52,437 nt of DNA. Origin: a bacterium. Its GTDB lineage: Bacteria > JACRDZ01 > JAQUKH01. Shown piece by piece: positions 13,438 through 46,311 of the stretch (position 1 is the first letter of the stretch; each line of letters opens with the position of its first letter). The notes beneath the pieces are model-generated. The model did no database searches. It was given only the letters and a program-made list of their open reading frames with translations, and was not told where the DNA came from. The stretch covers positions 144,603-197,039 of the forward strand of contig JAQUKH010000001.1 in the NCBI GenBank assembly GCA_028719205.1, written 5' to 3'. The translations under genes and the position numbers were made by a program.

Positions 13438-14655
13438 ATGAGATATATTTTATTACATACAATCTTGTTTACATTTCTGATAAACGCCGCTTTTTCATCA
13501 GATCTTTCCGTTATTCAAACAAACAAAATTTCTCAAATTCAGCTTGCTTTAGCTGATAACAAATTAGATTTAAGATCTTTTAAAATTAATTTAGCCGGCA
13601 GGATCTTAAATCAGCCTATTATCCTGACCCCTGAAAATCTTGGAGAATGGGGAAAGATCTATTTTGAGGTTATTCCGCCTGATAACTATTCTTCAACGTT
13701 AAGTATTGACATATCCATAGATGCGGTTACATTCCGGAAAACCTCAAAAAATTCATTCTATTTTGAATTTGAGCCTGAAGATAATAAAACATATATAATT
13801 ACTATGCGTGTTTTAACAAATGATAACGCGGAAATAAGAACATTCAGGGAATATCCGATAACTTTTATAAGATTCCCTGAAAAACATTATTCTCAGCTCA
13901 TAAAGAATATTATTACAATAGCATTTAACAATAAAGATCCTTCTGCTTTTTTAAAACATCTTTCAAACACGTATACTGACCCTGAAAATAACCGTTATGA
14001 TGAAATAGAAGACAAATTAAACCTGGAATTTAAAAAATATAGTAATATTAAATTCACAATAAAAAATTTTGAAATCAGCAGATTGGATTCGGTAAAATTC
14101 AAGGTAACGTTTGAATGGACCAAATCATATGAAAAAAATGATGGAAATAATATTGAAAATATATTTGGAAAATCAATTTTTATTTTTGAAAATGACCTTA
14201 TAATTCAAACAAGCGGTGACTCAATATTTATGGATTCATCTGTAAATAAGCAATTATCTGCGAATTCCGGGGTGCTTAAAGGCGGAACCGTTAATCTGAC
14301 GCCGAATGAATCTTTTGAATTTTTAACAGAAACATTTTATAAAAATGACAGGTTTAAAGGCGATATAGCAGTAAAAAAAGACGGTAATTTTTTATCATTA
14401 TACGTTCCCGGAGGCGTGATACAGGATATGGGAATAACAGCATTATCGGAAATCAAAGAGGCACCTGAGACTGGATATTCAGAAGAAACACAGGTGATCA
14501 TTGGGCACAGCTATTGTCTCCGGAATAATAACAATAGATTCGCAAAACTTCAAATTACTTATGTTGAAGGCTCCGAAATCGGACAAACCTCCGTTCTTGT
14601 CAGTATAAATTGGATCTATCAGGAAAAAGAATGCAGGATATTAAGGCCTCAATAA
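13438..14655 (+). CDS. Secreted hypothetical protein with a central NTF2/SnoaL-like domain
   Basis: Signal peptide (..INAAFS); IAFNNKD..AFLKHLS..Y pattern typical of NTF2-like folds; TTGACA-N17-TAATCT promoter at 13399-13427. Confidence 0.55.
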   Translation: MRYILLHTILFTFLINAAFSSDLSVIQTNKISQIQLALADNKLDLRSFKINLAGRILNQPIILTPENLGEWGKIYFEVIPPDNYSSTLSIDISIDAVTFRKTSKNSFYFEFEPEDNKTYIITMRVLTNDNAEIRTFREYPITFIRFPEKHYSQLIKNIITIAFNNKDPSAFLKHLSNTYTDPENNRYDEIEDKLNLEFKKYSNIKFTIKNFEISRLDSVKFKVTFEWTKSYEKNDGNNIENIFGKSIFIFENDLIIQTSGDSIFMDSSVNKQLSANSGVLKGGTVNLTPNESFEFLTETFYKNDRFKGDIAVKKDGNFLSLYVPGGVIQDMGITALSEIKEAPETGYSEETQVIIGHSYCLRNNNNRFAKLQITYVEGSEIGQTSVLVSINWIYQEKECRILRPQ

Positions 14656-17612
14656 CTTTTTCCGAAACTGTTTCCTAAAATATACAGATCACTTCCGTCT
14701 ATTATTTTATCTTTATTCAGGTCAGCTTTCGGATTCCAGGTGCTTTCTCCCTGCGTTTTACCGAATGAAGATCCAAAAATAGAAAGATCCTCGCCATCTA
14801 TGATATGATTTAAATTAAGGTCTGATATTTCTATTGAATTCAAAAAGTAAATATTATCCCATTCAACAATTATACTGAAATCGCGTTTTGAATCTCCGTC
14901 CTGCCAATCAATCGCGTAATCTTTTATACCTGCCATATCTATTTTTTTATCTTCTTTTTTATCATAAAGAATTACGCGAAAATTAAGCGGCGGATTAATA
15001 ACATCCCAGGATAAGGTTGTTTTATCTTTAACATTAGTTTCAATTACAAAATCAAAGTTTGTAATCTCTAAAGCGCCAAAATTCCCGCATGCACGGTAAT
15101 CAGTTCTATATCTTCCATTATCCTTCCCCCAATCTGAATGAGGAAAATATAACGATACATAGCTTTCTACCGGAGGCGGTTCAGACAGATCATTGAAATC
15201 ATATCCGTTTTTCGCGCCGGGTAGAAATCCAAGATAATTTTCATTATCAATATAATTCTTTGACATTACTTTTAGTTTTAATCCCCACCCGTCATTTTTT
15301 ACTTTACGGGAAGGTGAATTTACAGTCATTAAACCGGTGGCATTAGCGTCATATTTTGGGAAAACAATAGTTATATCTTTATCACTTCTATTTTTAACCC
15401 AAAATCCAATATCCGGTGAAATAGTGGTAAGATCCAAATATGATCTTTTAGCGTTGGTAGTATCATAATCATATGTCAAAAACTGATTTTCAAGCCAGAT
15501 ATTAGATGTATCAGTGACATATATCTCAACAGTATCTTGTTTAACCTTGATCTTTGAACTTGCAATTTGGTAAGCGAATGGATCAGCAATTTGCGTCCAA
15601 CCGGGAGATAAAGAAATTGCAGAAACTTTATCAGGGTCAACAGAAGCACCGTTTACTTTAAGCGGTAACGTATCAGGTATATTATCTCCCTTAATTTTGA
15701 GCCAGAAAGCATCACCCGGATCAAAAGTTGTATCATAGTTATTAGAATATTCTTTTTTTGCGGTATTCCACCGGTAAACTCTTCTATCTTCCGATAAGCT
15801 TAACGCGTAATCAATATTTGAGCTGTCAAGGACCAATGGGAAGGAAACCATTTTCCATGTCCACGTAGGAAAAGGAACGGTATAACCGGCAACTTTAACG
15901 CTCAAATTTCCCACAACTTCTTTTTTATTATCCGCCCAATCAGTCGCAATGATCTTGTAAGAAATTCCCCTGGGGGTAATATATTCTTTTGGAATTTTTA
16001 TTGATTTTGTTAATTTCAGTATAGATAAACCTCCTTCCGTATATATTGGAACAAAGGCATTCTCACCTTCCCCGTTTTTCTTAACAAAAAATTCGCCTTT
16101 TGTTAAAGCGATATTGTCAGAGACAGTAACAGTTACATAAGAATCTTCACCGTTATTTAGTAAACCAAATAGATCAGTTCCTTCAATTTTAGGAACGGTA
16201 GTATCAAGGTTTAAATTAAGTGAAGTTACCGTTATAATTTTTGAATCTGATACTTTTGAGCCGTTATTATCTGTTACCCGGACTTTTGGATGATATGTAC
16301 CTGAGGAACCATAAATATATATAGCGGTATTTACATTATTATTTGTAAGATCGTATGTTCCGTTCCCGTCAAAATCCCATTCGTATAATGTAATTGAACC
16401 GTCATAATCAACTGCATTTGCGGTAAAGTTAATAGTTAATGGGAATCCCCCCGTGTCATGATTTGACGTTATATTTACTGCAGGTGGAAAATTTCTTTGA
16501 GTATATTTTGTGTTTGATTTGGGAAATGGATAATTATAAAAAACTACGCCACAAGTTCCAAAACTATCAGAAGAATCATAAATGCAGTTATTGATTATAC
16601 TATTATCAATAGTGCTCCACCAATTGTAATAAACAACATTTAAATCATTAGGCGAATTATTAACAAAATAATCGTTATTAACCGCACCTGTATCAAAAAT
16701 AAAGTTATTATATAAAGCATATATATTTGCGGAACTGCCTGTATTATAAATCCCTAATCCATCATTTGCGGAATTATAAGCAAGAGAACAACTGTCAAGA
16801 AAAAGTGTGCCATTATCGTTATATGCCGCACCACCATAATTAGCTTTATTATAATATAAGTTGCTTTCAAGAATATTAACCTGACTGTTATCTGATAATA
16901 ATATCCCGCCTCCGTTTTCAGTCATCAAGCCACAATTTCTTATTTCGCTGCTTGAAATAATAATTACCGAAGAAGGCGCGGCTTTAATTCCGTGTTTCGC
17001 ATTTTCCAAAATTGAGTTACTTAAAAACCCGATTGAAGAAGTATCAAATAAAATCCCTTCCCAATCTCCCGTTTCTAAAGAAGTAAATCTTATAAAATTA
17101 TTGCTTTCACCGATGGCATATAGCGCACCCTTTACATTAAAATGCGCGCTCGAACTAAATTTCAGCTCTGAGCCTGCTCCAATTACTAAAACAGCGCCTG
17201 TATCTATTACAACATCCGAAGTAATAAAATATTCGCCGGGGATTAAATTAGCATAACCGGAAATTGTTCCTGATAAATTATTTATGGTCTGTTGTAAAGC
17301 AAATATTTCTGTTGTGTCTGCGCCAACATAATTTGTTCCACTATATACTTGTACTTTCGGATAATAAATTCCTACTGTATTATAAGTATAAACCGCCGTA
17401 CTTTCCGTATTGCTTGTTTCATAAGCCCCATCTCCATCCAGATCCCATTCATAAATGTAAATCGCTGGGGCAGTAACTTCAACTCTAAAGTTTACTTGTA
17501 ATGGGGCAACTCCGCTATTTTTGTCATACAACAAACTCACATCCACTGCGGATAATGGGGCTTGCAATAAGCTTAATATTGCTATGATTAATAAAATATT
17601 TATTTTTTTCAT
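14649..17612 (-). CDS. Large secreted multidomain protein: PKD, beta-helix, PKD, Ig-like, C-terminal dockerin-like domain
   Basis: Signal peptide from ATG 17612 (MKKINILL); PKD motifs YEWDLDGDG and YEWDFDGNG; GG.I/GG.A beta-helix repeats; duplicated Ca-loop tail DLNLNHIIDGEDL...DLNKDKIIDGSDL. Confidence 0.75.
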   Translation of the reverse strand: MKKINILLIIAILSLLQAPLSAVDVSLLYDKNSGVAPLQVNFRVEVTAPAIYIYEWDLDGDGAYETSNTESTAVYTYNTVGIYYPKVQVYSGTNYVGADTTEIFALQQTINNLSGTISGYANLIPGEYFITSDVVIDTGAVLVIGAGSELKFSSSAHFNVKGALYAIGESNNFIRFTSLETGDWEGILFDTSSIGFLSNSILENAKHGIKAAPSSVIIISSSEIRNCGLMTENGGGILLSDNSQVNILESNLYYNKANYGGAAYNDNGTLFLDSCSLAYNSANDGLGIYNTGSSANIYALYNNFIFDTGAVNNDYFVNNSPNDLNVVYYNWWSTIDNSIINNCIYDSSDSFGTCGVVFYNYPFPKSNTKYTQRNFPPAVNITSNHDTGGFPLTINFTANAVDYDGSITLYEWDFDGNGTYDLTNNNVNTAIYIYGSSGTYHPKVRVTDNNGSKVSDSKIITVTSLNLNLDTTVPKIEGTDLFGLLNNGEDSYVTVTVSDNIALTKGEFFVKKNGEGENAFVPIYTEGGLSILKLTKSIKIPKEYITPRGISYKIIATDWADNKKEVVGNLSVKVAGYTVPFPTWTWKMVSFPLVLDSSNIDYALSLSEDRRVYRWNTAKKEYSNNYDTTFDPGDAFWLKIKGDNIPDTLPLKVNGASVDPDKVSAISLSPGWTQIADPFAYQIASSKIKVKQDTVEIYVTDTSNIWLENQFLTYDYDTTNAKRSYLDLTTISPDIGFWVKNRSDKDITIVFPKYDANATGLMTVNSPSRKVKNDGWGLKLKVMSKNYIDNENYLGFLPGAKNGYDFNDLSEPPPVESYVSLYFPHSDWGKDNGRYRTDYRACGNFGALEITNFDFVIETNVKDKTTLSWDVINPPLNFRVILYDKKEDKKIDMAGIKDYAIDWQDGDSKRDFSIIVEWDNIYFLNSIEISDLNLNHIIDGEDLSIFGSSFGKTQGESTWNPKADLNKDKIIDGSDLYILGNSFGKSY

Positions 17613-17613
17613 T

Positions 17614-19152
17614 CTATCTGGCCTTTTTATTAGCTTTATCCGGCGGCCCCGGCGGCAAATCATTTACTTTAAATTCCCTGAAATATCTCATCGATTTATT
17701 ACCTAACATATCTTCCAATTCTACAGAAACTTTCCAATTCCCATCAGCCTTTCTGCCAAGAAATTTATATGGTGTTACCGTTATTGCGTATTTTTTCAAA
17801 CTATAATCATATTGCATAACTAATTGGAAGGAGCTCCCATTCTGGTGAAATAAAGTCAAATTTATATATTTTTTCATTTCTGAAAATTCATCGTCAGCTT
17901 CAACAGATATTTCAACTGATTCTTCTATATTAACCGGGTTTGGCGTAATATTAAAACTCGTTAAATTTGGAGGGCGCGTATCCAGATAAACCACCCTGGT
18001 TTCTCTGCTTTCATTTCCCGCTCCGTCAACAGCGCGAAATTCCAGGATATTTTTACCTTCATTAAGCATATAATTAGTATTAATAATACCTGCAATTAAA
18101 TGAATTTCCTGCCCATTAATAAAAAATTTGAGTCCTTCCTTCGCAACGTCATATTTATAAATAGTCTGAATACTTTTTTCACCATCTTTATTAACAGAGG
18201 TAAAACTAAAATTTATATTCCCCCCCGTTGCCCTGTCAGTTACTAAACCGACTATTCTTAAATTTCTGTTATTTGTAGCCCTCTTTCCAAATTCAGAAGT
18301 TGTGACCTTAATTATTGGAGGAGAAGTATCTTCACCTGTATTTATTGTGAAATTAAAATTACCATTTTCATCTGATTTTGTTGTAAGCGATTGTCCTGTA
18401 GAAGAGACCATATTAATCGTATTCCCGGGATCTGCCTGGCCTTTTATACTTGCCACACCTTTATCATTTTCAACAGATAATATTTTTGGAGAATTAATCT
18501 CCCCTTTTTTAATTAATTCTTCCTTTGCCTTTTCCAGATTTTCAAAACGTTCGAAATCAGAACCTGAAAGGACCCCGCTCCCGATAAAAGCTCCATCTAT
18601 ACCGACCAGAAAATATTTATTTTCTTCAATTACCTGTTCCCCTCCCGTTTTTATCGAACGCACATAACCTAAACCGCTCTTCAGCCCGATCCATGTCTCT
18701 CCATTTGGCTCAACGTGGATAAATACCGTTGTTCCCCGGAAACCAACCAGCGCTACGGGCGTTTCTATCTCAAAAGTATCTCCCTTTTTTAATTTCTCAA
18801 TTTTTCCGACCAGATCTCCGGCAAATAATTTAAAAGAAAATTTCTTTGTATTTGATTTATTATCCGTAAACAATTTTTGTATATCAAAAGTTGTATTTTC
18901 ACCAATATTAAAGATACTGTCATCAGGAAGCCTTAATTCAACCTTAGTTTTAAGCCTTGTCCTGATGCGGTCTTTCGGATAAAGCATCATTTTAAGCTTA
19001 ACATCTTCCCATTCTTGCTTTTGAGCTCTTTTTGCCTCAGCTTTACCTTCATAATAAATAAGCTGAGCTTCTTCTTTGGTTTCTTTTGCCGCAAATGAAT
19101 ATACCATTGGCATTATCATCAAAACTAAAATAACAAATTTAATATTTCTCAT
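17614..19152 (-). CDS. FecR-domain protein with C-terminal Ig-like domains
   Basis: Signal peptide; D.IRT..VEL..PDDS.F.IGENT and FEIETPVALVGFRGT FecR motifs; DT.PP and A.D.AGN Ig-like motifs. Confidence 0.8.
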   Translation of the reverse strand: MRNIKFVILVLMIMPMVYSFAAKETKEEAQLIYYEGKAEAKRAQKQEWEDVKLKMMLYPKDRIRTRLKTKVELRLPDDSIFNIGENTTFDIQKLFTDNKSNTKKFSFKLFAGDLVGKIEKLKKGDTFEIETPVALVGFRGTTVFIHVEPNGETWIGLKSGLGYVRSIKTGGEQVIEENKYFLVGIDGAFIGSGVLSGSDFERFENLEKAKEELIKKGEINSPKILSVENDKGVASIKGQADPGNTINMVSSTGQSLTTKSDENGNFNFTINTGEDTSPPIIKVTTSEFGKRATNNRNLRIVGLVTDRATGGNINFSFTSVNKDGEKSIQTIYKYDVAKEGLKFFINGQEIHLIAGIINTNYMLNEGKNILEFRAVDGAGNESRETRVVYLDTRPPNLTSFNITPNPVNIEESVEISVEADDEFSEMKKYINLTLFHQNGSSFQLVMQYDYSLKKYAITVTPYKFLGRKADGNWKVSVELEDMLGNKSMRYFREFKVNDLPPGPPDKANKKAR

Positions 19153-19166
19153 TTTTTCCTATTCTT

Positions 19167-19211
19167 ACCTCCCCCTTCCCCTCCTTGGCAAGGAGGGGAT
19201 TTAGGGGTGGT
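19167..19211. repeat. REP-like palindromic element, copy 1
   Basis: ACCTCCCCCTTCCCCTCCTTGGCAAGGAGGGGATTTAGGGGTGGT; inner stem TCCCCTCCTT/AAGGAGGGGA; 43/45 identical to 46267-46311. Confidence 0.85.
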
Positions 19212-20989
19212 TAAAACACCGCTGTTACTTCTCCGCCGATCTTACGGATAAAATAATCCAAACTGTCATTTTCATCATTATTATCCAATATACTATATTT
19301 TAAACTAAATGATACATTTTGAGATATATAAAACTTTGACTCTATGTCGCGGCTGAACCTCTCTAAAACTTTGACGCCATTCTGGCTGGTATAATCATAT
19401 TCCAGGTATGGGATCAAAACGCACTTATCTTTCCAAAGAACAATATTTGATTGAATATTCGCTAAATAATATATCTGTTTCTGGCCGAGATTTTTATATT
19501 TAAAATAATTATAATTAAAATATGGCAGCAAACTGAGCCTGTCTTTTTTTATACCCCAATTCCACGAGACATACCCGGAATATCCTGAGTAATCATTTGT
19601 ATTCAGCAGATTGTCTTTATATTTCGAATACTGAACATTATAAGTAACCCAGGTTTCCTCACTATATTCATCGCGAATAGTTACCGCGTAAGTATCATCA
19701 TTCGTATCTTTTTCATCAGGCCTGTTACCATTTTTAGTTGTATTTTTATATTTAAATTCAGTGTTTCCCGATTCAGGATAATATTTAAATTTATATTCCT
19801 GGATCCTGGTAACTGTAGTTGTTTCAATATCCGATTTATTCACATTATCATTATATTTTTCAAAATTTCCCACTAGAGAATATTTCTTTGACAAAATAAA
19901 CTCATTTTCAAAGTCATAACCTTTTTTATCGGTTTCCAGATATGGATTTCCTTCACTGTGATAATTCGGATCAACTTTCTGGTAAATCATCTTTGTCAGC
20001 CATATTTTAGTTAAATAATTTATTTTGATGTTTGAAGCCTGATCCGTAAAAGTAGTATCCTTATCACCTTTCCGATATTTACTTTCCCCATATTCACTAT
20101 CTATCTTCAGCCTGTCATCTAAAAAATGAAAATGCCCATCAATCCCGATAATATCATTTTTCAACACCGGATACAAACTGGATGTTGAATCGACTGATTG
20201 TGGATTTGGTATTGAGGACATATCATCTTTTGCCGAAATAATATTCGCTCCCGCATCAAAAAAACGGTTAAATTTATTTTCAACCCTTATGGCTGCCATA
20301 TGCTGGCTGAAATCTCCTTCCTTAACATCCAGGATATTATTGCCGTTACTATCCTCTCCCGGATCAATTATTGAGTTCCCGTTTCTGTCCTCTTTAATAG
20401 GCTCTATTGCCTGTTGAGATTGCGCGACAAAAGCTTGAATAATCAGCCTCTCATTAAAAACTTTTTTAAATCCCAAACCTCGGACAGTTAAACCCTCTAA
20501 AGTAATACTTGAATAGCTTGGATAAAAATCACCCGCGTTAATTGTAACATCGCCTTTTACCGCCTCTAAACGAAAAGTATCAACAATAAGCCTCTTTTTC
20601 CAGGTACTAAAAGACAGATCAGCCAGATTCGATAGGTCCCACCCTGAATTTGTACCCATTAATAAATAACTTAACTTTTGGTTCAAACCTGAATAGTCTG
20701 TCCCGACTTCTTTCAGATTGTCATTCATCTTGATGTCTGTTAACGAATAAGTAAGGCTTCCAGCGATATTATATCTTTTAATGTTATACCAATCAGGTTG
20801 TTTTTGCAAAGCATCCGCAGTATCGCTTTTCATTTCCACAGCAGTTTCTTTCATCATAGTAGTGTCCACCGTTTCAACTGAATCTACCTGTGCCATATCA
20901 TTTTGCGCGCCGGAGGAATTAACTAATAGAACAGAAATGGATATAAAAACGGCAATAAAAGCCTTTTTATATTTTTTGTAGAAGCTCAT
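19211..20989 (-). CDS. Predicted outer-membrane beta-barrel protein with a Ca-binding loop insertion
   Basis: Signal peptide from ATG 20989; alternating Tyr/Phe-rich amphipathic strands; GDFYP.YS..TL.G...RG and Y..V.P.Y.S.GNP motifs; C-terminal GGEVTAVF beta-signal. Confidence 0.65.
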   Translation of the reverse strand: MSFYKKYKKAFIAVFISISVLLVNSSGAQNDMAQVDSVETVDTTMMKETAVEMKSDTADALQKQPDWYNIKRYNIAGSLTYSLTDIKMNDNLKEVGTDYSGLNQKLSYLLMGTNSGWDLSNLADLSFSTWKKRLIVDTFRLEAVKGDVTINAGDFYPSYSSITLEGLTVRGLGFKKVFNERLIIQAFVAQSQQAIEPIKEDRNGNSIIDPGEDSNGNNILDVKEGDFSQHMAAIRVENKFNRFFDAGANIISAKDDMSSIPNPQSVDSTSSLYPVLKNDIIGIDGHFHFLDDRLKIDSEYGESKYRKGDKDTTFTDQASNIKINYLTKIWLTKMIYQKVDPNYHSEGNPYLETDKKGYDFENEFILSKKYSLVGNFEKYNDNVNKSDIETTTVTRIQEYKFKYYPESGNTEFKYKNTTKNGNRPDEKDTNDDTYAVTIRDEYSEETWVTYNVQYSKYKDNLLNTNDYSGYSGYVSWNWGIKKDRLSLLPYFNYNYFKYKNLGQKQIYYLANIQSNIVLWKDKCVLIPYLEYDYTSQNGVKVLERFSRDIESKFYISQNVSFSLKYSILDNNDENDSLDYFIRKIGGEVTAVF

Positions 20990-22853
20990 AAATTTTAGTC
21001 TCAGCCTTTCTTCCTTTAACTGTAACATTCCCTAGATCTTTTACAATAAATTTATCTCTAACTTTCTCATAAGTAGATTCACTGATAATTATGCTTGTTT
21101 TATAATCTTTGTTCAACGATTCGATTCTTGAACCTAAATTCACATTATCACCGATAACCGTATAATCCATTTTAGTATCTGAACCCATATTCCCCAGGAT
21201 CATATTACCTGTATTAATGCCAACGCCGATCTTAAACTGATGTTTCCCTTTTTCTTCCTGTTCCTTAGAAAACTTATTTGCCTCTTCTATCATCTCTAGC
21301 GCGCAGAGACAAGCACGCTCGGCATGGTTTGCCTGAATAATTGGAGCCCCAAAAACTACCATTATCGCGTCACCTATGAATTTATCAAGCATTCCGTCAT
21401 GTTTAAAAACGATCTTTGCCATCCTTCTGAAATATTCATTTAAAACCGCAACATTTTCCTTTGGTGAAAGATTTTCAGAAAATGTCGTAAAACCCCTGAT
21501 ATCTGAGAATAAAACTGTAAGTTCTTTTTCCTCGCCGTAAAGATTGATCTTTTCAGGATCCTGCATTAATTCTTTTAATACTGCAGGAGAAACATATCTC
21601 TGGAACGCGCCTTGTATGAATTTCTTTTGTTTCCGTTCAGATAAATATTTATAACCCAGATTGCCCGTAAAACTTGTAAAAATTACCAAAGTCGGTTTTA
21701 TCAACGGGAGCCAGATACTATTTTTCTGAAAAAGAACTAACGCGGAAGTAAAATATAGAATCCATAAAAATGCTGTTGCTATTATCGAAATTCCAAGTGA
21801 AAAAATATTAGATATAACAAAACAAAATAAGCTTAAAAATAATAGAATTATTATGGCCTGCTTACTATTTAATTCTATCACAAAATTTTTGTTTATAATA
21901 GTAAAAAAAGCATTAGCATTTATTTCAATTCCCGGTGATATTTCCTTAACAGGAGTCGACCTTAGATCATAAGCTCCGGCGGCTGTCGCGGCAATAAAAA
22001 CAATCTTATCCTGAAAATACTCCTTTGGTACAATTTGCTCATAAATCTTCCAAAAAGGTATATACCTGAAAACATAATAACCGGCATAATTCACGAGCAT
22101 TTGATTATCTTTTCCGACAGGGATTTTTATATCATTAAAATGAAAATATTTGCCTTTTTCAAGCCGAATATTTTCATTTGAAATACCTAAATAATCTATA
22201 GCCATTTTAACCGCAAACTGCGGATACGCCCTTTCTTCATGCTTTATAAAAAGCGGAATACGGCGGATTATTCCATCCCGGTCATTTTTCAGGTTGATAA
22301 ATCCAATACCCTTTGAATTCTGAACAATCCCATAAATAGGCGGGAAAATATATTGTTCCCAATAAATAGCAGTATCTAATTCATTTCCTAATGGATAGCT
22401 GAATGAACGTATTATTTCGTCATTAGTTCCTGGTTTAGCAGAAAAATAATAGCTTGAATATACTCTTTGCGATCTTTTTATTGATTCAATAAGCAGGTTA
22501 TCATCTTTCAGATCTTTTGAATTTTCAGTAAAAAGAACATCGAAACCTATCTGTTTTGCCCCGCCTTCGCTTATATAATCAAGTACCTTAGCATACATAC
22601 TTCTCGGCCATTCGCTGATCCTGCCTAATTTTGTCGCGGATTCATCATCAATTTCAATAATAACAATGTTCTGAAATTCTTCCTTAAATTTTTTATTGTA
22701 ATAATCCGTGCGGAAATTAAAACGGCTGTCTAAAGTTTTTCGTTCAAAATCCTCAAAAAAACTCAAATATTCAGTAAAGAGCAGAATAAATAACACCGAG
22801 CAGACACTTATAGCAAAACCTATTGAAAGGTTTTTTACCTTTGACTTCTCCAT
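20967..22853 (-). CDS. CHASE2-domain class III adenylate cyclase
   Basis: IVIIEIDDES, WPRS.YA, IGFDVLF, DRDGIIRRIPL (CHASE2); three TM helices; FSDIRGFT, DKFIGDA (ATP-specifying Lys), YTVIGDNVNLGSRIE, VKGR. Confidence 0.93.
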   Translation of the reverse strand: MEKSKVKNLSIGFAISVCSVLFILLFTEYLSFFEDFERKTLDSRFNFRTDYYNKKFKEEFQNIVIIEIDDESATKLGRISEWPRSMYAKVLDYISEGGAKQIGFDVLFTENSKDLKDDNLLIESIKRSQRVYSSYYFSAKPGTNDEIIRSFSYPLGNELDTAIYWEQYIFPPIYGIVQNSKGIGFINLKNDRDGIIRRIPLFIKHEERAYPQFAVKMAIDYLGISNENIRLEKGKYFHFNDIKIPVGKDNQMLVNYAGYYVFRYIPFWKIYEQIVPKEYFQDKIVFIAATAAGAYDLRSTPVKEISPGIEINANAFFTIINKNFVIELNSKQAIIILLFLSLFCFVISNIFSLGISIIATAFLWILYFTSALVLFQKNSIWLPLIKPTLVIFTSFTGNLGYKYLSERKQKKFIQGAFQRYVSPAVLKELMQDPEKINLYGEEKELTVLFSDIRGFTTFSENLSPKENVAVLNEYFRRMAKIVFKHDGMLDKFIGDAIMVVFGAPIIQANHAERACLCALEMIEEANKFSKEQEEKGKHQFKIGVGINTGNMILGNMGSDTKMDYTVIGDNVNLGSRIESLNKDYKTSIIISESTYEKVRDKFIVKDLGNVTVKGRKAETKIYELLQKI

Positions 22854-43038: not shown

Positions 43039-43608
43039 CTATTGATAATTTAAACTCCCGCCGATCCATGATGTGCCGGCGATATTGGGATTATGCGCGT
43101 TTGATGATTTCAAAGCGCTATTCTGGACATTAAATCCTATAGCAGTATTCGCCTGCGTTGTTAGCGCCCTAAAAACAATAGTAACTAACGTTCCATCTCC
43201 ATTTGCGCCCGGAACATCTCCTTTTTTATCACTACCGACCAGTAAGGTACCTTCCTTTCCCCTATCCAGCATAGCGGAAAATACAATATCTCCTTCCGTA
43301 CCTAAATAATCTCCTTTTCTTAATGATATATAGTTTATTTTACTGCTATCGTATGTTATTTCAATCGCGGCACCATATACATCCGTCCCGTTTTTTACCT
43401 TAACAGCTAAATTTATCTCATCATTATTTATTGAAACTTGTTCTAAATATACTGTATTATCTGAAGGGGTGCCTGAAGGAGTGAAAGAAATTGTATCACC
43501 TGTACCGGTAAGCGGCATTGATGACCCGCCACCGCTTTTGCCACAACTGTTCAAAATAAATAGGACTGAAATACTTATTATACTTATTAAAAACTTAAAT
43601 CTTCTCAT
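43039..43608 (-). CDS. Cohesin-domain lipoprotein
   Basis: Lipobox LNSC plus G/S linker; cohesin pattern V.VKN..DVYG....ITYD...I......GDYL...G.L..G......G.GTL.TI.F.A; stop codon 1 nt before the protease ATG. Confidence 0.75.
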   Translation of the reverse strand: MRRFKFLISIISISVLFILNSCGKSGGGSSMPLTGTGDTISFTPSGTPSDNTVYLEQVSINNDEINLAVKVKNGTDVYGAAIEITYDSSKINYISLRKGDYLGTEGDIVFSAMLDRGKEGTLLVGSDKKGDVPGANGDGTLVTIVFRALTTQANTAIGFNVQNSALKSSNAHNPNIAGTSWIGGSLNYQ

Positions 43609-46266: not shown

Positions 46267-46311
46267 ACCTCCCCCTTCCCCTCCTTGGCAAGGAGAGGAT
46301 TAAGGGGTGGT
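46267..46311. repeat. REP-like palindromic element, copy 2
   Basis: ACCTCCCCCTTCCCCTCCTTGGCAAGGAGAGGATTAAGGGGTGGT; two mismatches to the copy at 19167-19211. Confidence 0.85.

Follow-up and report, generated by a model that had tools for sequence, protein, structure and literature searches.

How might an event at the surface of a bacterial cell be conveyed to a cyclase in its inner membrane? The question is raised by four minus-strand genes in a stretch of 52,437 nucleotides (nt) of contig JAQUKH010000001.1 (assembly GCA_028719205.1, positions 144,603 to 197,039 of the forward strand), which we call the window and to which unlabelled coordinates refer. They encode a CHASE2 class III adenylate cyclase (gene 1), a predicted outer-membrane barrel (gene 2), an exported FecR-domain protein with immunoglobulin (Ig)-like domains (FecR-Ig, gene 3) and a putative secreted surface protein (gene 4). 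The assembly comprises 2.59 Mb, has about 34% G+C and is 92.7% complete; the genome is G000 in the labels used below, where G, L and C denote compared genomes, fetched loci and contigs. An earlier note, made from the sequence alone, had read the four genes as an operon for cyclic AMP (cAMP) signalling across the envelope, comparable with NsrA and CyaK of Sinorhizobium meliloti. We lean, at slightly better than even chances, towards a similar view, in which the four genes would make up one envelope-spanning sensor with cAMP output, corresponding to the NsrA-CyaK relay of Sinorhizobium in split form. Domain content, a barrel fold, the single-copy status of the components, their adjacency and the wide co-conservation of the four families are the observations that now support both the parts list of that note and its idea of a single envelope-spanning cAMP module.

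The junctions of the cluster were re-read base by base, and the figures agree with those given previously for four tightly linked genes. The cyclase stop codon lies within the barrel gene, whose ATG is at 20989, giving a 23-nt overlap; the barrel and FecR-Ig genes are separated by a filled gap of 58 nt; and between the TAG of the FecR-Ig gene (17614-17616) and the ATG of gene 4 at 17612 there is 1 nt. Scans for promoters and terminators were uninformative, since counts were near the shuffled expectation and every minus-strand terminator-like site was intragenic. The sequencing runs listed as containing the stretch are three DNA runs from a single study, one of which may be its source, and no RNA run is among them.

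The product of gene 1 matches the Pfam families CHASE2 (PF05226; 2.1e-57, 195 bits) and Guanylate_cyc (PF00211; 2.2e-32, 112.6 bits). Hydropathy marks two hydrophobic segments, at residues 6-33 and 324-376, and the layout is that of a periplasmic CHASE2 domain (about residues 21-343) followed by a cytoplasmic cyclase domain (443-623), so that, as in class III CHASE2 cyclases, CHASE2 stands between transmembrane segments and the PF00211 domain comes after it on the cytoplasmic side. Among PDB sequences adenylate cyclases were matched, with E down to 5.2e-42. An alignment of 47 sequences shows no variation at D451 and D495 and a conservation of at least 90% at K491, T565, N572 and R576; following what is understood of class III cyclases, we take D451 and D495 to be the metal ligands, K491 and T565 the adenine pair, and N572 and R576 the transition-state asparagine and arginine. 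With all six positions on invariant or at least 90% conserved columns, the catalytic motifs appear intact, as had been claimed. The protein is the sole PF00211 match in the genome, where five open reading frames (ORFs) encode proteins with a domain for binding cyclic nucleotide monophosphates (cNMP). The cluster would thus be the only class III cyclase activity of the genome, and therefore, if it is indeed the sole source, its input may govern the entire cAMP signalling of the organism. A second CHASE2 protein, of 928 amino acids (aa), is encoded outside the window (G000:C1:96963-99749; L008 6963-9749) and is fused to a sigma-54 activator domain; downstream of its gene, on the same strand, lie genes for a caspase-like Peptidase_C14 protein, two CsgG/FlgO-like proteins and a protein combining caspase and Lcl_C domains.

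For gene 2, neither Pfam (E up to 0.01) nor NCBIfam returned a family, and a profile of its relatives found no match among PDB sequences at E up to 10. The protein has a signal-peptide-like N-terminus, an acidic linker of about 45 aa (residues 24-70, modelled with low confidence) and a barrel from 74 to 591 that ends ...TAVF. A first AlphaFold model, made from 5 close sequences, was unusable (pLDDT 28.9), and an alignment of 33 sequences was used instead; with it AlphaFold2 gave 26 beta-strands (DSSP), pLDDT 86.5 and pTM 0.74. The top Foldseek match of this model is MtrB (6r2q_B, E 5e-10), to which VIA-align fits it with Z 22.2 and a root-mean-square deviation of 3.5 A over 467 aligned residues at 12% identity; the ushers FimD and PapC follow behind MtrB with Z 14-18. 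Because a confident 26-strand model finds its best structural match in MtrB, gene 2 is predicted to encode a large MtrB-like outer-membrane barrel, and the barrel suggested earlier for 19211-20989 is upheld by the model. A homologue of Omp85/BamA is also encoded in the genome. A word-index protein search with the barrel, like its profile version, recovered close relatives only (at least 69% identity in the former); an exhaustive search recovered 42 proteins at E up to 1e-3, several near full length, at 25-27% identity. An insert in one loop, NGNSIIDPGEDSNGNNILD... (residues 184-238, window about 20280-20440), matches a motif of which giant proteins, 1599-2565 aa long, carry 8-18 copies, and also a 1574-aa ORF of this genome (C10:28274-28510); going by its sequence, it looks like a Ca-binding-type repeat in a surface loop.

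The product of gene 3 begins with a signal-peptide-like segment, as judged from hydropathy, continues with a FecR domain (residues 61-147, 7.3e-10) and Ig-like domains matched by Big_6, Big_13 and Glucodextran_B, and ends in the Pro-rich DLPPGPPDK, in keeping with its previous description as an exported FecR protein extended by Ig-like domains. Partial NCBIfam matches are to the Leptospira FecR-type lipoproteins LipL45 and Lsa33, and the comparison with PDB sequences gave weak matches to Ig domains only (best E 0.034). The protein lacks a cytoplasmic anti-sigma part and contains no cysteine, therefore also no haem-binding CXXCH motif, and no other ORF of the genome matches PF04773. A Pfam scan of 12 ORFs around the cluster revealed neither an extracytoplasmic function (ECF) sigma factor nor a TonB-dependent receptor domain, as had been stated. 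A Pro-rich C-terminus is shared by long FecR-Ig proteins elsewhere, DLPPGPPDK here (window 17614-17650) corresponding to DLPPPPPDK in L006, DIPPLPEER in L047 and PDLPPDNGN in L051, and may be a docking peptide.

In the product of gene 4 a signal peptide is followed by a PKD domain, a right-handed beta-helix, a second PKD stretch (3.2e-11 over the two), a conserved module of about 400 aa, which we call the X module, and a dockerin-like tail. The counterpart in the congener G001, of 1477 aa, carries an N-terminal RCC1 propeller in place of PKD and beta-helix and is 57% identical to the window protein across the C-terminal 509 aa, tail included. Since the congener swaps the head and yet shares the last 509 residues, the head of the protein is exchangeable and its C-terminal part retained. 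The X module is homologous by BLASTP to the C-termini of proteins encoded upstream of FecR-barrel pairs in three other families (G325:C49, 1e-28; G278:C37, 1e-11; G258:C51, 1e-5). A profile of the module (A6) has matches in 37 of 63 genomes, with a single match in this one; its 121 rows merge into 96 distinct loci outside the genus, of which 19 have a match to FecR, CHASE2 or the barrel at most 5 kb away and 77 have none. Because the module recurs beside FecR genes across families, the gene-4 protein is, on this sequence comparison, a recurrent partner of FecR genes and no oddity of the operon. The opinion of the earlier note that the surface protein is the unusual addition is accordingly not supported for the protein as such, what is lineage-specific being only the dockerin-like tail and the swapped N-terminal head. 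No description of a head-swapping surface protein beside FecR genes was found in the literature searched, and its recurrence suggests what the input to such systems may be.

The C-terminal end of gene 4 was considered further. The match of the tail to Dockerin_1 spans profile positions 2-54 of 57 and includes two segments resembling D-x-N-x-D-x-I-D-G-x-D-L. In the homologues at L050 and L054 the place of the tail is occupied by a match to CHU_C, a type IX secretion signal, below the cut-off, and the tail of the L047 homologue is similar to these by eye. A search with PF18962 (type IX tail) gave one sub-threshold match in this genome and none in the control genomes, so it is uninformative. At L050 (G278:C37:24890-26167) the homologue forms the C-terminus of an open frame about 8000 aa long; thus the X module can cap giant surface proteins. 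A cluster look-up with the module gave best scores of 0.88-0.90 for clusters without a common Pfam family, which are leads only. As to possible binding partners of the tail, the genome contains 12 cohesin-domain ORFs (PF00963), mostly about 190 aa in length and including one at 43108-43425 of the window (minus strand), and 6 dockerin rows, and several cohesin ORFs adjoin large dockerin-bearing proteins on contigs C24, C3 and C8; this suggests, from domain content, that non-cellulosomal cohesin-dockerin surface display is in general use in the lineage.

We then asked whether the four families keep company elsewhere. A profile of the barrel family (A2) has matches in 75 of 401 sampled genomes, G000 included. 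For the 58 genomes outside the genus that were cross-tabulated, the other 14 matching genomes having been left out, A2 matches were compared with those of PF05226 and PF04773, and adjacency within 5 kb was counted by hand from the match tables. Of 76 distinct ORFs of the barrel family, both FecR and CHASE2 lie near 16, CHASE2 only near 5 and FecR only near 15. Given 251 FecR and CHASE2 match rows in about 195 Mb, the rough chance expectation, kinship ignored, is about 1 in 76. The conservation of the gene neighbourhood proposed earlier as a check was therefore found, with 16 barrel-family genes of 76 near both partners as against about one expected when kinship is ignored, and all four gene families are co-conserved far outside the genus. 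In the present genome the class III cyclase, the FecR gene, the X module and the full-length barrel-family match each occur once, and all are adjacent.

Several observations weigh against the view of a single cAMP sensor. The co-directional run of genes goes on upstream of the cluster with rluB-like, LysM, DUF4416 and other genes, and the congeners G001 and G002 retain the cluster together with flanking housekeeping genes; conservation within the genus says little, because synteny reaches the housekeeping flanks. Both facts would suit four unrelated envelope genes that are neighbours by chance in one run extending well past them. We consider this very improbable, since the adjacency is met again in many unrelated families, about 30 times as often as estimated for chance, the junctions include a 23-nt overlap and a 1-nt gap, and all the components are single-copy and co-located.

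There are also cases in which the cyclase is missing. Of the 76 barrel-family ORFs, 40 have neither FecR nor CHASE2 within 5 kb, and seven genomes with the barrel family (G314, G160, G057, G285, G315, G209 and G041) have no FecR or CHASE2 at all. The closest trios of gene 4, FecR and barrel outside the genus (G325:C49, G278:C37 and G258:C51) have no adjacent cyclase, and the next-best barrel match, G258:C1, adjoins neither FecR nor CHASE2. As the nearest relatives outside the genus do without a neighbouring cyclase, cAMP output is not obligatory for the trio. The same trios would be expected if the barrel and FecR-Ig formed an outer-membrane translocon or anchor, usher-like, MtrB-sheath-like or Slam-like, which displays the gene-4 protein or FecR-Ig itself, the cyclase being a separate neighbour or a mere monitor of the device; and the best fold matches of the barrel, MtrB and the FimD and PapC ushers, are proteins that enclose or pass other proteins. 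This explanation, the main alternative to the sensor, is in our opinion unlikely. It leaves aside that 21 of the 76 barrel-family ORFs stand beside CHASE2 and that the seven such neighbours scanned all carry a cyclase domain. The barrel itself has no Slam/DUF560 or usher match in Pfam, and its 26-strand model has no helical repeat domain, contrary to what is expected of a Slam or type 11 channel, a DUF560 barrel preceded by TPR. Moreover, because of their CHU_C-like C-terminal ends, below the cut-off in L050 and L054 and recognised by eye in L047, gene-4 homologues may use another export route, and the FecR domain is known from the FecIRA system as a signalling adaptor, not as a cargo.

Two further points weigh on the details of the sensor that we favour. 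Its surface protein had been described as a PKD, beta-helix and dockerin protein; the PKD domains and the beta-helix, which is above its cut-off, stood, and the tail is better called dockerin-like, since its match to Dockerin_1 (PF00404) reaches 18.9 bits (E 0.0017) where the cut-off is 22.9. In addition, the barrel and the C-terminal part of NsrA gave a best BLASTP E of 2.5 and, by hhalign with a 22-sequence profile, a probability of 0.1%. In the absence of such a sequence relation, the term split NsrA is founded on the FecR domain, the CHASE2 cyclase and gene position, not on barrel homology, although the two may still have a fold in common.

From the compared genomes 18 loci were fetched and their ORFs scanned against Pfam. 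All 8 CHASE2 proteins scanned there carry a cyclase domain, and seven of them adjoin a barrel gene (L040-L046), the eighth belonging to a FecR-CHASE2 pair without barrel (L048). At L040-L043 the order is an unannotated protein of 377-406 aa, FecR (226-254 aa), barrel (820-928 aa) and CHASE2 protein. Long FecR proteins (512-872 aa) pair with short barrels (549-657 aa), and short ones (226-258) with long barrels (787-928), a complementarity that would fit a movement of domains between the FecR and barrel genes. In the triad of G292 (L045:12159-13771) the genes after the cyclase encode a cNMP-binding protein and an AI-2E transporter, and in that of G066 (L042:1803-3359) a response regulator with a PglZ domain; these genes are likely readers or effectors.

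Pairs lacking a barrel, which are found in G325:C40, G060:C16 and G376:C61, recall a model proposed, in the part of the paper available, for the LysM-FecR protein encoded next to a CHASE2 histidine kinase in a Burkholderia operon (PMC5192318). Transferred to the window, FecR-Ig would be a periplasmic ligand-binding or inhibitory partner of CHASE2 only, and the barrel and gene 4 would serve some other surface function; the Burkholderia operon itself is in its favour. We judge it rather improbable, because in 16 triads a barrel gene lies between or beside FecR and CHASE2, because NsrA joins a FecR domain and an outer-membrane part in one polypeptide, and because FecR is the only link common to all the observed pairings. 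A prediction of the complex between CHASE2 residues 32-330 and FecR-Ig residues 22-200, run without controls, scored 0.33, 0.00 and 0.00 and so speaks neither for nor against a contact. To our knowledge no ligand or mechanism of activation has been established for the CHASE2 domain. The factors it recognises were stated to be unknown in the available text of a 2016 study (PMC5192318).

On balance, then, we prefer one sensor that spans the envelope, and it might work in the following way. The outer membrane would contain the 26-strand barrel, which the exported FecR-Ig protein, as periplasmic adaptor, would link to the CHASE2 domain of the cyclase in the inner membrane. The extracellular partner would be the gene-4 protein, anchored to the surface through its conserved C-terminal module, perhaps with the help of the dockerin-like tail, which could bind a cohesin protein of the genome. 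Its exchangeable head, beta-helix and PKD here and an RCC1 propeller in the congener, would meet a ligand or a surface; such an event would alter the contact between FecR and CHASE2 and hence the activity of the cyclase, and the resulting cAMP would be read by the five cNMP-binding proteins. Every contact between proteins, the direction of signalling and cAMP rather than cGMP as the product are what we infer from the parts.

A bolder form of the proposal, to which we assign a low probability, takes the analogy with the MtrCAB complex further: the cluster would encode an MtrCAB-like trans-outer-membrane complex used for signalling, with the FecR Ig stalk threaded through the 26-strand barrel and capped by gene 4. 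The stalk would lie in the barrel as MtrA lies in MtrB, and the X module would cap it at the surface as MtrC does MtrA. The heads of gene 4 and its relatives (beta-helix, RCC1 propeller, cadherin or Ig) would bind a ligand or a surface, and pull or displacement would travel mechanically by way of the barrel as far as the FecR head and CHASE2, thereby setting the cAMP level. If this were true, the X-module proteins beside FecR genes would constitute a large and so far undescribed class of extracellular sensor heads that can be exchanged.

The coordinates of the features are collected in Table 1. The gap between the barrel and FecR-Ig genes contains a G+C-rich palindrome, CCCCTCCTTGCCAAGGAGGGG, which resembles repetitive extragenic palindromic (REP) elements. 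When up to 3 mismatches are allowed, the genome contains it at 25 distinct sites, including 8 exact copies, and the control with the reversed pattern gave 0, so that the expression REP-filled gap was fair. A second copy lies in the window at 46278-46298, and 23 more sites are elsewhere in the genome. In the congener G001 the corresponding junction has only 6 nt and no palindrome; the element is therefore regarded as an insertion, outside the module. On the other side of the cluster, a convergent ORF of 405 aa (13438-14655, plus strand) with a hydrophobic N-terminus shares 7 nt with the 3' end of gene 4. It has no match in Pfam or NCBIfam, is kept in G001 at about 65% identity, and is unrelated by BLASTP to the 377-406-aa proteins encoded upstream of FecR in the triads with long barrels. 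The four proteins of that kind form a related group (E down to 2e-42) without relation to any gene of the window.

Table 1. Features of the four-gene cluster and of related loci (strand and remarks where available; unlabelled positions are those of the window)
Feature	Position	Strand	Remark
CHASE2 class III adenylate cyclase gene (gene 1)	20967-22853	-	628 aa
Predicted outer-membrane barrel gene (gene 2)	19211-20989	-	592 aa
Exported FecR-Ig gene (gene 3)	17614-19152	-	512 aa
Putative secreted surface-protein gene (gene 4)	14649-17612	-	987 aa
REP-like G+C-rich palindrome CCCCTCCTTGCCAAGGAGGGG	19178-19198	.	21 nt, within the 58-nt barrel/FecR gap
Right-handed beta-helix in the variable head of gene 4	16722-17159	-	PF13229, 29.2 bits (cut-off 25.9)
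Conserved C-terminal X module of gene 4	14778-15935	-	no Pfam family
Dockerin-like tail of gene 4	14670-14825	-	two Ca-loop-like segments, DLNLNHIIDGEDL and DLNKDKIIDGSDL
Conserved unannotated protein upstream of FecR	L040:9012-10181, L041:9617-10837, L042:9807-11021, L043:2716-3849		377-406 aa

The cluster can be compared with several known systems. With MtrCAB of Shewanella (6r2q) it shares the predicted barrel fold, MtrB having, as we understand it, the same 26 strands, and the encoding of periplasmic and extracellular partners alongside the barrel. It differs in that sequence identity is 12%, FecR-Ig has no cysteine, and Pfam finds no cytochrome domain in the neighbours; the resemblance is limited to fold and layout, and nothing points to electron transfer. 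With FecIRA it shares the pairing of a FecR-family periplasmic domain with an outer-membrane barrel. The FecR protein of the window, however, has no anti-sigma part or transmembrane anchor, its signal peptide running into the FecR domain; no ECF sigma factor, TonB-dependent receptor, plug or STN domain is present among the 12 ORFs, and the output is a cyclase.

Closer are systems in which CHASE2 itself is found next to FecR. The Burkholderia operon mentioned above encodes, according to the part of the article available, a response regulator, a LysM-FecR protein, a CHASE2 histidine kinase and a DUF4136 protein (PMC5192318); an exported FecR-domain protein is thus encoded beside a CHASE2 sensor, but the output is a histidine kinase, LysM takes the place of Ig, and the operon as described in that text has no barrel or surface protein. 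In Campylobacterota, as far as the accessible portion of the study tells, the adenylate cyclases all carry CHASE2, and most of them cluster with a FecR-domain outer-membrane protein, a tetratricopeptide repeat (TPR) protein and a phosphodiesterase, which its authors interpret as a single signalling pathway (PMC9239204). The clustering of a CHASE2 cyclase with a FecR-domain protein connected with the outer membrane is common to both; the Campylobacterota cluster has in addition the phosphodiesterase and TPR, its FecR protein is itself the outer-membrane protein, and that portion mentions no large surface protein (PMC9239204). The core idea is hence already in print, since clusters of a CHASE2 sensor and FecR are reported in what is accessible of both papers (PMC9239204, PMC5192318).

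The closest comparison remains that with S. meliloti, where CHASE2 cyclases respond, by the part of the report at hand, to a plant protein sensed via NsrA (PMC13001267). A tblastn search of plasmids showed that CyaK and the window cyclase are 26.5% identical over 89% of the length. Immediately upstream, and ending at the cyaK start, is a gene whose annotation reads FecR domain-containing protein (1197 aa). From its position we take this gene to be nsrA. In its product a FecR domain (1.5e-15) is accompanied by TPR repeats and, towards the C-terminus, about 650 further aa, and this FecR domain aligns with that of the window at E 1e-6. The analogy is therefore closer than the earlier note had claimed: as NsrA is itself FecR, TPR and C-terminal region, the operon can be seen as a split and differently built NsrA-CyaK. 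Both systems, that of S. meliloti including CyaD1 and CyaD2, have a CHASE2 class III cyclase beside a FecR-domain protein, an outer-membrane component and, as predicted for the window, cAMP output. NsrA, however, is a single chain, whereas in the window FecR-Ig and barrel are separate, in the order cyclase, barrel, FecR, and the cluster has no TPR by Pfam and adds a fourth, extracellular protein. NsrA-CyaK, the only studied case that we found, is thus a fused protein in a symbiont; the operon and its relatives show the FecR domain as the common hub, and, since adaptor, barrel, sensor enzyme and surface protein are here encoded by separate genes, each contact can be tested separately.

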